Positions 30,572 to 39,928 of a stretch of DNA of 64,000 bases are shown here, in pieces. This DNA comes from Escherichia phage vB_EcoM_G50: the sequence record NC_054917.1. The stretch is one strand, 5' to 3'. The notes below the pieces were generated by a model. That model was not told the DNA's origin and searched no databases. It worked only from the letters and a program-made list of their open reading frames with translations. Each line of letters starts with the position of its first letter. Positions within the stretch are counted from its first letter, which is position 1. A program made the position numbers and the translations under genes.

Positions 30572-31045
30572 TTATTTGAACGATTTAACGTACTGAATAG
30601 AACCTTTACTATTCACGAAAGCGATTTTACCATTTTTATTATACATGGTAGCAGTACGCTGATAGCCATAAGTTTGCTTACCAGATTGATAACCAACTAA
30701 TGCAAAATTATCTTCACCCATTTTATTCTGTTTAGCGCGAATGCGTTCATGACCATGTGCCATAAGAACCTTAGCATCACCAGTTGCAATGGATCGACGA
30801 GTTTTTTCATCTTCAACTGTATTAACAAAGTCGTCAAATGAATCAAATTTAGCATGAGATTTATTATACAGTTTTCCATCTACTGCATAATTATATCCCT
30901 GTACATCCATCTCAACTTCTGTACCATCATCCAATACAGCAGTGATTTTCTGTCCTTTTTTAAATTTCAAAAGATCAGTAAAAGATTCAGCAATAATTTG
31001 AGAATTAATAGCTGCTTCAGTAATAAATTCTTGATATGTTTTCAT
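30572..31045 (-). CDS. Internal-protein-like head protein with capsid targeting sequence
   Basis: 157 aa; N-terminus MKTYQEFITEA is the conserved T4 internal-protein targeting sequence ending in a protease-type I-x-E site; ipII/ipIII position beside e. Confidence 0.7.
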   Translation of the reverse strand: MKTYQEFITEAAINSQIIAESFTDLLKFKKGQKITAVLDDGTEVEMDVQGYNYAVDGKLYNKSHAKFDSFDDFVNTVEDEKTRRSIATGDAKVLMAHGHERIRAKQNKMGEDNFALVGYQSGKQTYGYQRTATMYNKNGKIAFVNSKGSIQYVKSFK

Positions 31046-31061
31046 GTGTATCCTTTAATTT

Positions 31062-31379
31062 TTATTCTTTAGGGAAGTTTTTAGAATATGCATCATAAAG
31101 CTTATTTCCAATACGGCGGAAAACTCTAGCCGCAAAACGATTTTCTGGGTTTTTAATCATGATTTGCATCATATAAGTACCCGCGTCAGAAAGAGCTTCT
31201 TCATAGTACCCGTTAATTTCTTTAAGAGTCCTACGTTTACCACCAGGACCATCAACAGTGATTTTCCATTTACCTGTAGAAGTGCGACTTGGCGGCTCAA
31301 CTTGTTCAATCCAGATATAACCGCCTTCTACACGTTGTCCTTGGGCAGATTCTGCAATAAATTCTTTAAACGTTTTCAT
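31062..31379 (-). CDS. Internal-protein-like head protein with capsid targeting sequence
   Basis: 105 aa; N-terminus MKTFKEFIAES; immediately downstream of e. Confidence 0.7.
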   Translation of the reverse strand: MKTFKEFIAESAQGQRVEGGYIWIEQVEPPSRTSTGKWKITVDGPGGKRRTLKEINGYYEEALSDAGTYMMQIMIKNPENRFAARVFRRIGNKLYDAYSKNFPKE

Positions 31380-31450
31380 ATGGTTCCTTTAAATATTTTA
31401 ATTAGTAACTATGAATATACTATCACAGTTCTAGGAGAAAGTAAACAACT

Positions 31451-31945
31451 TTATAAATTTTTATACGCGTCCCACGTACCAGTTCTAAACGTGGCAATGA
31501 CTCGTTTTGCGCGATTAGGTGTTTGATTATACCATCGACTTTTAGCTAAGTTAACTGCTGCTTCATCCCAGCGTTTTTGTTGGAGCATACGTAAAGAATT
31601 AGTAAATCCTGCTACGCCGGTTTCTCCCATTTGGAAAACCATGTTAATCAATGCACAACGACGAACAGCATCAAGAGAATCATAAACCGGTTTTAATTTA
31701 GCATTTCTCAGAATTCCGCGAACAGCAGCATCAACATCCTGATTAAAGAGTTTTTCAGCCTCATCTTTTGTAATTACACCATTGCAATTACGCCCAATAG
31801 CTTTATCTAATTCAGATTTAGCAACACTAAGTGATGGACTTTTAGTAAGCAAATGTCCAATGCCAATAGTGTAATAGCCTTCTGTGTCTTTATAGATTTT
31901 AAGTCTAAGACCTTCATCTATACGTAACATTTCAAATATATTCAT
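31451..31945 (-). CDS. e: Endolysin (T4 lysozyme, muramidase)
   Basis: 164 aa; [33 protein letters not shown]... near-identical to T4 lysozyme as recalled (catalytic E11, D20, T26 present). Confidence 0.97.
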
Positions 31946-31971
31946 AATACCTCCTAAGTATTTATAGAAGG

Positions 31972-31979
31972 TATTTATA
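31972..31979 (-). promoter_or_regulatory. T4 late promoter motif TATAAATA upstream of e
   Basis: Exact TATAAATA on the minus strand about 27 nt upstream of the e ATG; a second copy at 31959-31966 is probably too close to the ribosome-binding site. Confidence 0.55.
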
Positions 31980-31982
31980 AAA

Positions 31983-32438
31983 TTAAAAGAGGTTGTTCAT
32001 TATTCGGTAAAGTGAAGGACCCATCGCATATTGCCACTGAGTACGAGGAATAAGAGCAAAAGCGTCCATCTCTGGAATCATAACGCCATCTTTATTTTCA
32101 AAATAAGACTCGCAATGGCAATTTCTGAACATCTCATGCTCTACTGGAATCGTATAATAAAACAACTGTAAGTCTTTATTACTAGAATATTTAAATACAC
32201 CTAGGTCTTCTAGAAGGTCTGGATTATAATTACTAAAGCCAGTCTCTTCTAAACATTCTCTTTTTGCAGCTTCCAGTGCATTCAAATCAGAACTTTCTAC
32301 ACGCCCCTTTGGAATATCCCAACGATGTGCCATCATTCCAGGCTTACGAGAACCAGTAACTCGTCCCATAAATAAATCTTTATCTTCTGTCATAAAGATA
32401 ATACCAGCTGATAATGTTTTCATTTTAATTTCCTGCAT
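31983..32438 (-). CDS. nudE: Nudix hydrolase
   Basis: 151 aa; Nudix box [24 protein letters not shown]; adjacent to e. Confidence 0.85.
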
Positions 32439-32923
32439 TCAGTGATAAAATTATTTAAATTTTGAGTATATTTCTTTTCATCAAAAATCTTTTGCTGCCT
32501 ACGTAACCGCCATGGCATTTCAATGAACACGCACCATATTCCTGATAGTACTGCTGCTGTAAAAATATTAACAAGTATAATTAAAAGAATCCAATCTTCC
32601 GTTCTGCCTACTGGACTTTCTCCAAAGAAGCAAAATACAAATGATGTCACAGGAAAACTAATAATATACCACAGAATCATAATCTTATCTGTGAACCAAT
32701 CAGCGTTCGTTAATTTAGCGCGACCATTATGAATACACACGAATTTATCATCTGTTGCAGTAGATGGCTTAACTGGTTGATATCCCATTCTAAACTCCCT
32801 AATCAGCAAATTTTTCATATCTTCGGAACAGCCATTCCAGTCAACTCTATCAACTGAAATGCCATCATCCCCGTCATCTAAATCATACCAGCGAGTTTTT
32901 AAAATCATTTGATTTTCCTGCAA
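32420..32923 (-). CDS. Membrane protein (e.2-like position)
   Basis: 167 aa with hydrophobic helices in the C-terminal half. Confidence 0.5.
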   Translation of the reverse strand: MQENQMILKTRWYDLDDGDDGISVDRVDWNGCSEDMKNLLIREFRMGYQPVKPSTATDDKFVCIHNGRAKLTNADWFTDKIMILWYIISFPVTSFVFCFFGESPVGRTEDWILLIILVNIFTAAVLSGIWCVFIEMPWRLRRQQKIFDEKKYTQNLNNFITECRKLK

Positions 32924-38513: not shown

Positions 38514-38586
38514 CTGGGAATAAAGGACTCGAACCTTTGCATCCTGGAATCAAAATCCAGTGCCTTACCAACTTGGCTAATTCCCA
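38514..38586 (-). tRNA. tRNA-Gln (anticodon UUG), abuts tRNA-Leu
   Basis: 5' UGGGAAU acceptor; anticodon stem-loop CUGGA-UUUUGAU-UCCAG; 3' end is 1-2 nt from the Leu 5' end (dimeric precursor arrangement). Confidence 0.85.
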
Positions 38587-38683
38587 ATTATTAACAAAGG
38601 CTCTCAAGCAAGAACCCTTGATGATAGAGGGTATTAATCAGTGCGATATGAGTTAATAATAACAAATAATTCTTAAAGCATAT

Positions 38684-38971
38684 TTACCATTTATGATAAT
38701 ACATATTTACGATGCATTCAAGACCCAAAGGATTCTTGAAAATATCATATTCAAGAGGACCTTTTTCCGTTTCAATAAAGAAATCAAAATTTACTGTATT
38801 AAATTTACGGTCTTCCTTCACTAATTTAACTTGAGAAGATGAACGATCAATGTAAACCTTTTCAACTTCAAAACATGTTAAAATGCCATAATCATCAATC
38901 AAGGCTTTAGCTGCTTCTTGATCATATTTATATCCATTTTCAATGGATGATACTTTCGCATAAAGAATCAT
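38684..38971 (-). CDS. Hypothetical protein
   Basis: 95-aa ORF between ipI and the tRNA cluster. Confidence 0.5.
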   Translation of the reverse strand: MILYAKVSSIENGYKYDQEAAKALIDDYGILTCFEVEKVYIDRSSSQVKLVKEDRKFNTVNFDFFIETEKGPLEYDIFKNPLGLECIVNMYYHKW

Positions 38972-38973
38972 TA

Positions 38974-39378
38974 TTAACCTTTATCAACAATAGTATGTGT
39001 ATGGGCATTTACGATTTGCCACCAGTCAAAACTATCGCCAAATCGTTTTGATTTATTGTCTTCAATAATTTGGCGTAATTCATCTTCTGTTTCAGCATAC
39101 GCAATCAAATCATCATATCCACCGCAAGGATAGTAATTATCGCCTGCGAACAAAAGAAAATTTACTTTAGATGGGTCTACATAATAATGCTCTTTAGGAT
39201 ATTTAGTTCCTTTCCAATCAGTTACTTCAACATAACGATAAGAAAATCCATTTTTACTTTCAACCCAACTCCACGCTTCAAAAGGAGTATTAAAAACTCT
39301 ATCAGGTATTAAATTACCTTCAAAATGAGAAGGATTTGCATAATCCCCAGCATAAACATAATATTCGTTAATATTCAT
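38974..39378 (-). CDS. Hypothetical protein
   Basis: 134-aa ORF, aromatic-rich. Confidence 0.5.
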   Translation of the reverse strand: MNINEYYVYAGDYANPSHFEGNLIPDRVFNTPFEAWSWVESKNGFSYRYVEVTDWKGTKYPKEHYYVDPSKVNFLLFAGDNYYPCGGYDDLIAYAETEDELRQIIEDNKSKRFGDSFDWWQIVNAHTHTIVDKG

Positions 39379-39564
39379 TTATTCACCTTTAGAAATTTTA
39401 TCCATAACAATAGCGATTAAACCAATTAAAAATGCTACTACAAGTGAAAAAACATTTTCTGCTGTAGTCAATAATCCACATATAAATCCAACAAACATTG
39501 AAAAACTAAAAGCAGAAGCAGAAATTGCAATAGCAACATTTCGAATTAATTCACAACGTTTCAT
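39379..39564 (-). CDS. Small membrane protein
   Basis: 61 aa with two hydrophobic segments; stop/start abuts the next ORF. Confidence 0.5.
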   Translation of the reverse strand: MKRCELIRNVAIAISASAFSFSMFVGFICGLLTTAENVFSLVVAFLIGLIAIVMDKISKGE

Positions 39565-39592
39565 TTTATTCTCCTCAGTAGTTGATAGGGTA

Positions 39593-39622
39593 ATAGTATC
39601 ACAACTAAAACCCTATGTAAAC
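39593..39622 (-). promoter_or_regulatory. T4-type early promoter (-35 GTTTAC, 18 nt, -10 TACTAT)
   Basis: Minus strand TTGTTTACatagggttttagttgtgaTACTAT. Confidence 0.5.
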
Positions 39623-39640
39623 AACTTTGTGAAATATTTA

Positions 39641-39928
39641 TTACAAAAGATTTTTAGCAATAATCTTGAGATGTGCCGCAGAAATGTGTTTAGCTTTAAA
39701 CAACGCAGTTTCTTCAGCAGGAGAGATAATGATTGTAGCACCATCCTTTTTAGCAGACCACCCATCACCTAGGTAAACAGTACCTTTGATTTCTTCGCCA
39801 TCAACCAAACTAATCATTGGTTTACCTTCTCGTCCTTTATTTGCTTTAATAACTTCAGAAGTAAGAGTAGCTTCAGTAATAGTAGAAACCGGGGTAGTTG
39901 TAGAAGTAAATTCTTTGAAAGTTTTCAT
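39641..39928 (-). CDS. ipI: Internal protein I-like head protein
   Basis: 95 aa, the size of T4 IPI; N-terminus MKTFKEFTSTTTPVSTITEA has a targeting-sequence-like start with an I-T-E site; position upstream of 57B. Confidence 0.6.
   Translation of the reverse strand: MKTFKEFTSTTTPVSTITEATLTSEVIKANKGREGKPMISLVDGEEIKGTVYLGDGWSAKKDGATIIISPAEETALFKAKHISAAHLKIIAKNLL

Follow-up and report, generated by a model that had tools for sequence, protein, structure and literature searches.

The 64,000-nucleotide stretch of Escherichia phage vB_EcoM_G50 analysed here (NC_054917.1; the whole stretch is called the window below) comes from a T4-like phage of the genus Tequatrovirus, judging by its best match to, and collinearity with, Escherichia phage REP4. 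It carries five small genes at three loci whose products all begin with the leader sequence of the phage T4 internal proteins (Ips). We consider it probable that these five open reading frames (ORFs) are the ip genes of this phage, that their products are targeted by the leader, cut by gp21 and injected into the host, where they likely inhibit type IV restriction, and that the repertoire came about by cassette exchange. The five genes are listed here, with lengths in amino acids (aa) and a slash at each predicted cleavage site:

30572-31045, minus strand: ip4 (IpIV), 157 aa, leader MKTYQEFITE/A
31062-31379, minus strand: ip10, 105 aa, directly downstream of lysozyme e, leader MKTFKEFIAE/S
35645-36208, minus strand: member of phrog_2280, 187 aa, leader MKTYAEFLTE/A
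36333-36806, minus strand: member of phrog_2280, 157 aa, leader MKSYAQFLNE/AVLNE/A
39641-39928, minus strand: ipI (internal protein I), 95 aa, N-terminus MKTFKEFTSTTTPVSTITEA, 19-residue propeptide ending ITE/A, mature protein IPI* of 76 aa

An initial annotation had picked out these ORFs by their targeting-sequence-like N-termini, and the ORF list bears this out, with all five on the minus strand and beginning as described. A six-frame scan of the window for the targeting sequence MK[ST][YFW]x[EQDK]F finds exactly five occurrences, each at the first ATG of one of these ORFs. The back-translated pattern ATGAARWSNTWYNNNSARTTY has 5 matches against 0.01 expected, a number reached by 0 of 100 dinucleotide shuffles. 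All five ORFs begin MK[ST][YF]x[EQ]F, position 4 being aromatic and position 7 Phe in 5/5, and four of the five proteins, IPI being the exception, have (I/L)-x-E at residues 8-10. For the T4 leader, positions 4 and 7 are described as critical for targeting and positions 8 and 10 for processing, and the first 10 residues of IPIII alone package foreign proteins (review of Black's work, PMC9026906); the leader is removed by gp21 (PMC9026906; PMC3012670). Read at the level of sequence, a gp21-type motif lies at residues 8-11 of Ip4, Ip10, the 187-aa and the 157-aa phrog_2280 protein (ITE/A, IAE/S, LTE/A and LNE/A, respectively) and at residues 17-20 of IPI (ITE/A). The predicted mature proteins span 76-177 aa and have isoelectric points (pI) of 9.02-9.60, compared with 9.56 for T4 IPII and 9.65 for T4 IPIII, and IPI* falls in the same range. 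Because the frequency of non-synonymous differences (pN) is far below that of synonymous ones (pS) for every one of the five, measured against REP4, PP01, RB32 or T4, the ORFs are real genes under purifying selection.

Beyond the window, a scan of the whole REP4 genome for the leader gives gp61.1, annotated as 'hypothetical', as the only extra match, and the same scan of T4 also gives gp61.1. This protein of 54 aa, encoded in the early region (T4 NC_000866 18966-19130; REP4 OQ174503 77156-77320), starts leader-like with MKTFKEFIKED in T4 and MKTYKEFIKED in REP4 and continues with a Gly/Ser-rich stretch and a KKKKEESKEKEE tail. Such an N-terminus might extend the list of injected proteins further.

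Only one of the five genes is shared with T4. The product of 39641-39928 is identical to T4 IPI at 94/95 residues, so that the initial annotation was wrong to see a non-T4 protein in this 95-aa ORF: it is T4 IPI itself. The sole difference is conservative, Ile67 here for Val in T4, and the 19-residue propeptide is identical. Pfam family IPI_T4 (PF11634) covers residues 20-95 with E=2e-53 and 178.7 bits against a gathering cut-off of 25, and the solved structure of IPI* (PDB 2JUB, 76 aa) aligns to the same residues with E=1.5e-44; since the solved protein starts at residue 20, the 19-residue propeptide is confirmed. The locus is also that of T4, with 57B upstream and trna.4 downstream. T4 IPI is the inhibitor of GmrSD from E. 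coli CT596.

The two genes adjoining lysozyme e are different. As had been noticed at the outset, they sit at the position of T4 ipIII and ipII, immediately downstream of e, and the sizes that the initial annotation gave for T4 are correct: IPIII has 193 aa, or 194 codons if the stop is counted, and IPII 100 aa, against 105 and 157 aa here. In pairwise alignment with T4 IPII and IPIII the two ORFs share only their first 12-17 residues, which for Ip10 means residues 1-14, and a tblastn search of the window with the T4 proteins finds leaders only, beyond a weak 33% match between IPII and Ip4 (E=1.7e-4, leader included). As this match rests largely on the leader, we rejected the idea that the e-adjoining genes are diverged versions of IPII and IPIII. 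What the window genes share with T4 IPII and IPIII, which inhibit GmrSD-ECOR21 and GmrSD-ECOR17, is the locus, the leader (MKTYQEFIAE/A in T4), the DNA of the ribosome-binding site (RBS) and basic mature proteins; the mature sequences are dissimilar.

Ip4 and Ip10 belong to families of their own. Ip4 matches Pfam DUF7412 over residues 1-157 of a 158-position profile (E=5.7e-96, 319 bits against a cut-off of 27) as well as phrog_3155, 'internal virion protein' (E=6e-102), and its protein sequence is 100% identical to PP01 IpIV and to RB32 Ip4 ('Ip4, similar to T2, RB70 Ip4'), with 17 synonymous and 0 non-synonymous differences from PP01 and RB32 together. Ip10 matches phrog_3966 (E=2.4e-33) and has 97% identity with PP01 'Ip10 internal head protein' and 70% with the Ip10 of SP18, a Shigella phage; its best Pfam matches (CsgH and filamin-like, E about 0.1) were judged to be chance. 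PP01 has the same gene order as the window, vs.8-ip4-ip10-e, while RB32 carries ip4 alone, without ip10. The names Ip4 and Ip10 in the GenBank records follow the nomenclature of Repoila et al. of 1994. The expectation of an injected-protein repertoire other than that of T4 thus holds for four genes (Ip4, Ip10 and the two phrog_2280 genes) and fails for the fifth, IPI. Likewise, the counter-case named in the initial annotation, that these are simply T4 Ips, is true of IPI only, the other four lying in different Pfam or PHROG families.

Ip4 may be processed more than once. Across 13 Ip4 homologues the residues M1, K2, F7, E10 and E20 are invariant, and residues 17-21 hold a second cleavage-type motif, IIAE/S, that is invariant in the family. 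The invariance of E20 inside a conserved [ILM]-x-E-[SA] suggests that Ip4 has a two-step or 20-residue propeptide, like IPI.

Comparison with T4 locates the exchange at the e locus. Two features lie on its left side:

31451-31945: lysozyme e
31347-31379, minus strand: DNA for the ip10 targeting sequence, codons 1-11, the left exchange junction relative to T4, where blastn homology resumes

On the right, blastn homology to T4 runs from vs.6 to position 30572, where the ip4 stop coincides with the T4 denV stop; on the left, window 31347-34869 corresponds to T4 66383-69921, of which 66383-66415 are codons 1-11 of ipIII. The window therefore reads vs.8-ip4-ip10-e (30432-31450) where T4 reads vs.8-denV-ipII-ipIII-e (64913-66502), with 774 bp of mature ip10 plus ip4 in place of 1440 bp of mature ipIII, ipII and denV. 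In this cassette exchange, ip10 and ip4 stand in for denV and for the mature portions of ipIII and ipII, with one junction inside the leader-coding DNA. The leader and RBS DNA of ip4 is about 90% (91%) identical to that of both T4 ipII and ipIII, and a junction at the end of the leader DNA fits the old proposal that this DNA mediates the shuffling of ip genes. A tblastn search of the window and of the complete genome of REP4 found no denV (endonuclease V, the UV-repair 'v' gene) in either. We take this arrangement to resemble the classical T2 type, which is without the v gene.

The remaining two genes lie away from the classical ip loci beside e and beside 57B, where ip4, ip10 and ipI are found, and only two polymorphic ip loci are reportedly described in the 1994 work of Repoila and colleagues. 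The phrog_2280 pair sits between e.8 and rnaC, directly after the rnaC hairpin, and is bounded and divided by the following features:

36861-36884, minus strand: rnaC terminator hairpin AGCCCCGACCGAAAGGTTGGGGCT with T-run, the apparent cassette insertion point (terminator scan); the hairpin follows rnaC in T4 too
36847-36854, minus strand: TATAAATA, a perfect match to the T4 late promoter, 48 nt before the 157-aa gene (motif scan and direct reading)
36302-36325, minus strand: duplicate of the rnaC hairpin, separating the 157-aa gene from the 187-aa gene (terminator scan and direct reading; 29/29-nt class match to T4 70831-70859)
35618-35636: a different terminator-like hairpin after the 187-aa gene, closing the cassette before T4-like sequence upstream of e.8

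Both proteins match the phrog_2280 profile (E=8e-53 for the 187-aa and E=5.7e-60 for the 157-aa protein), and they are distant paralogues, with a weak pairwise similarity of 27% over 135 aa (E=0.009). The 187-aa protein has a mature pI of 9.46, and its gene a pN/pS of about 0.16 against REP4; pN/pS of the 157-aa gene is 0.04-0.10. The AlphaFold2 model of the 157-aa protein (predicted local distance difference test, pLDDT, of 73) is all-helical, a Pro/Ala/Lys linker joining its helical N-domain to a long helical hairpin. In distant phrog_2280 relatives, collected by a profile search to E=1e-4, the bodies have diverged and an aromatic-x-x-F-(L/V)-x-E leader is kept (for example MLKFNEFLAEG, MINFSDFLNEG and MKSFSSFLNEG). 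Judged by its sequence, phrog_2280 has every hallmark of an internal protein. The two-gene insert (35618-36884) has the look of a mobile cassette bounded by hairpins, much as repeats flank the Ip7/Ip9 pair in the RB32 record, and in our model this late-transcribed cassette would have been inserted at a duplicated rnaC terminator hairpin. That phrog_2280 is a widespread Ip family which has escaped recognition, housed at a third ip locus in such a cassette, is a tentative proposal to which we give a little under an even chance.

The closest counterparts of the 157-aa gene, RB32ORF133c and PP01_137, are 96-98% identical to it and lie at the same site after rnaC within the same flanking repeat; the window differs in carrying the 187-aa paralogue in tandem. 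RB32ORF133c is annotated as 'flanked by 34 bp imperfect direct repeat' and is not called an Ip. Other 'hypothetical' phrog_2280 members lie likewise between e.8 and the tRNA cluster, and the leader is recognised in none of these records. The start of PP01_137 is called at a TTG that precedes the true ATG by 90 nt (LC348379, 68537-69100), so that the annotated ORF crosses the terminator hairpin and its leader, MKSYTQFLNEA, is hidden at residue 31. This miscalled start is probably one reason why phrog_2280 was never recognised as an Ip. Compared with REP4, the 187-aa gene has 21 nucleotide and 8 amino-acid differences within a stretch that is 99.3% identical and in which e, ip10 and ipI are identical; since the differences concentrate there, local mosaicism or faster evolution of this gene is suggested. 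A Pfam match of the 187-aa protein to cytochrome b562 (E=0.0065) was judged to be chance.

How unusual is this repertoire? Among phage records, the 157-aa phrog_2280 gene is found in 510, Ip4 in 469, IPI in 289, IPIII in 261, IPII in 198, Ip10 in 188 and the 187-aa gene in 163, which makes the 157-aa gene commoner than any T4 Ip. Among the matches listed, those to the 187-aa gene are all 'hypothetical protein' or unannotated, and those to the 157-aa gene 'hypothetical protein', unannotated or featureless. In RB32, too, five genes carry the leader, spread over these same loci (Ip4; ORF133c; Ip7, Ip9 and Ip5). From the record counts and the RB32 set we conclude that the repertoire in the window is ordinary for the genus, the T4 set being no more typical. 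Nor is the phenomenon itself new. The polymorphism of the ip loci and the shared leader have been known since Repoila et al. (1994), according to the passages of PMC3012670, PMC9026906 and PMC12373910 that cite it; the hypervariability of these loci among T-even phages, invoked in the initial annotation, has accordingly been in the literature since 1994 by the account of those passages. Since the leader, the variation itself and the names Ip4 and Ip10 were all known before, the finding is an ordinary one. Modestly new, set against the annotations and literature searched, is one thing only: the likeness of phrog_2280 to an Ip family that has gone unrecognised, at a third locus flanked by hairpins.

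How would these proteins work? During prohead assembly, the leader of roughly 10 residues would dock each protein onto the scaffolding core, and gp21 would then cut after the Glu of (L/I)-x-E, at residue 10 in four of the proteins, at residue 19 in IPI and possibly also at residue 20 in Ip4. Small and basic, the mature proteins would stay with the packaged DNA and enter the host with it. There, by analogy with the T4 proteins, their most likely action would be stoichiometric inhibition of the type IV nucleases directed against glucosyl-hydroxymethylcytosine DNA. Experiments have shown that T4 Ip1, Ip2 and Ip3 act on three different enzymes of the GmrSD type, one specific enzyme for each protein (PMC12373910; PMC9391042), and that another Ip, Bas37_0260, inhibits McrBC (bioRxiv 10.1101/2025.11.20.689424). 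By its description, Bas37_0260 resembles the genes studied here in having the same N-terminal packaging leader and in being an accessory gene in an ip hotspot; it differs in its locus, replacing ipI in its own phage. For the window, the sequence itself shows the identity of the genes, their leaders and cleavage motifs, the charge of the products, purifying selection, one late promoter and the recombination junctions. That Ip4, Ip10 and the phrog_2280 pair are packaged and injected, and that they might counter restriction, is inferred.

Several observations weigh against this picture. When Ip4-10 were assayed against 15 GmrSD representatives, no reproducible inhibition was seen (PMC12373910, Supplementary Fig. 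9), and an anti-type-IV role of Ip4 and Ip10 thus remains a guess. Structure prediction gives no functional lead for Ip4 (AlphaFold2 from a 13-sequence alignment, mean pLDDT 50), Foldseek with the 157-aa model finds nothing in the PDB at E<=0.001 and only its own family in BFVD, and searches of PDB sequences and of NCBIfam, as well as of Pfam with Ip10 and both phrog_2280 proteins, return sub-threshold noise only. The motif scan finds no perfect late promoter directly before ip10, ip4, ipI or the 187-aa gene, whose late expression would therefore need read-through or non-consensus promoters. In the literature searched we found no virion proteomics for phrog_2280 proteins and no paper on gp61.1 as an internal protein; as gp61.1 has a leader-like N-terminus and is not known to be packaged, the motif alone may not guarantee packaging. 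Text searches for the leader peptides and the virion proteomics literature on Tequatrovirus likewise gave nothing on the Ip4, Ip10 and phrog_2280 families.

These points bear differently on the alternatives. That the ORFs are simply T4 IPI, IPII and IPIII whose lengths had been given wrongly has next to no chance: the 94/95 identity of the 95-aa ORF to IPI speaks for it, but alignment of T4 IPII (100 aa) and IPIII (193 aa) to the remaining four stops after the first 12-17 residues, and Pfam and PHROG place those four in different families. A more serious alternative, which we nevertheless consider rather unlikely, is that Ip4, Ip10 and the phrog_2280 proteins do enter the head and the host, yet for a purpose other than countering restriction: a general one within the head or at injection, such as charge neutralisation or DNA condensation, or action on some other host defence. 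The basic character of all the mature forms (pI 9.0-9.6) would suit such a role, as would the lack of reproducible inhibition of the 15 GmrSD representatives by Ip4-10 and the searches in which neither fold nor sequence likeness to known inhibitors was found. Yet every Ip of known function (T4 Ip1-3 and Bas37_0260) inhibits a specific type IV enzyme, and the hypervariable, cassette-like distribution of the genes better suits an arms race than housekeeping.

It is also conceivable, and in our estimate quite improbable, that the phrog_2280 genes, and possibly others, do not encode head proteins at all and have kept the leader as a DNA-level module for translation initiation or recombination. The leader and RBS DNA is indeed conserved among unrelated ip genes and forms the recombination junction, T4 gp61.1, encoded in an early-gene cluster, shares the N-terminus, and among the matches listed no curated record names phrog_2280 an Ip. 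Against such a module stand the distant phrog_2280 members, in which DNA and protein have strongly diverged and the protein-level aromatic-x-x-F-(L/V)-x-E nonetheless persists. The perfect late promoter before the 157-aa gene, the basic mature proteins like those of known IPs, and the sufficiency of the first 10 residues of IPIII for packaging foreign proteins (PMC9026906) argue in the same direction, that is, for leader-targeted internal proteins.

Internal proteins are the first phage proteins in the host cytoplasm, and on them depends the survival of glucosylated T-even DNA under type IV restriction; knowing the Ip set of a phage therefore helps to predict the host range of therapeutic or environmental T4-like phages. 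For the window this set is routine, with IPI, Ip4 and Ip10 all catalogued. Should the phrog_2280 products be packaged as well, the range of proteins injected by T-even phages would exceed the classical Ip1-Ip10 list, and phrog_2280 would be a prime candidate inhibitor of a still unmatched host defence. A useful by-product is a correction of annotation for the phrog_2280 genes, which are 'hypothetical' among the matches listed, carry all the sequence hallmarks of an Ip and belong in screens for anti-defence functions.

As for transcription signals, the region 29000-42000 holds six TATAAATA sites in all, five of them on the minus strand, and two perfect late promoters precede e, upstream of ip10 and ip4. 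A consensus scan shows early-type promoter-like sites before ip10 and ipI, and for the 187-aa gene no promoter of its own was recognised in the scans. The site before ipI is:

39959-39987, minus strand: putative early-type sigma-70 promoter-like site upstream of ipI, TTTACA-17-TACTAT with TG, by consensus match only (scan and direct reading)

The wider setting is that of a T4-type genome. The 10 kb from 30400 to 40500 match 1185 phage records, the best being Tequatrovirus REP4 at 99.4%, and collinearity, with REP4 91414-154968, extends over the whole window at 95-99% identity. Gene order follows T4 through vs.6-vs.8, lysozyme e, nudE, e.3-e.8, rnaC/rnaD, the tRNA cluster, trna.2-4, ipI, 57B, 57A, gene 1 and gene 3. 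The genes for gp21 and gp22 fall outside the 64-kb window; a head maturation protease and a head scaffolding protein are annotated in REP4 (95-99% identical).

A further small polymorphic site is indicated at e.7, where a 58-aa ORF (34897-35073, phrog_5461) stands in place of the unrelated 111-aa T4 e.7 and RB32 carries yet another gene. The tRNA region (37196-38586) is also unlike that of T4, with 11 tRNA genes where T4 has 8, the extra ones being His, Asn and Tyr, and it does not contain the homing endonuclease gene segB that is present in T4. A 116-aa ORF at 37196-37546 (phrog_3355, with no assigned function) is inserted between tRNA-Arg and rnaD. Rfam searches over 30000-41000 returned tRNAs only, and the homology of rnaC and rnaD came from blastn to T4.

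Finally, REP4 (OQ174503) has genes annotated as alpha-glucosyltransferase (82430-83272) and beta-glucosyl-HMC-alpha-glucosyltransferase (94909-96111; HMC, hydroxymethylcytosine), the latter corresponding to about 3500-4700 of the window by the offset of the alignment. The pair is that of the T2/T6-type gentiobiosyl modification and not the T4 alpha/beta pair, and this type of modification may bear on which type IV enzymes the Ip set must counter.

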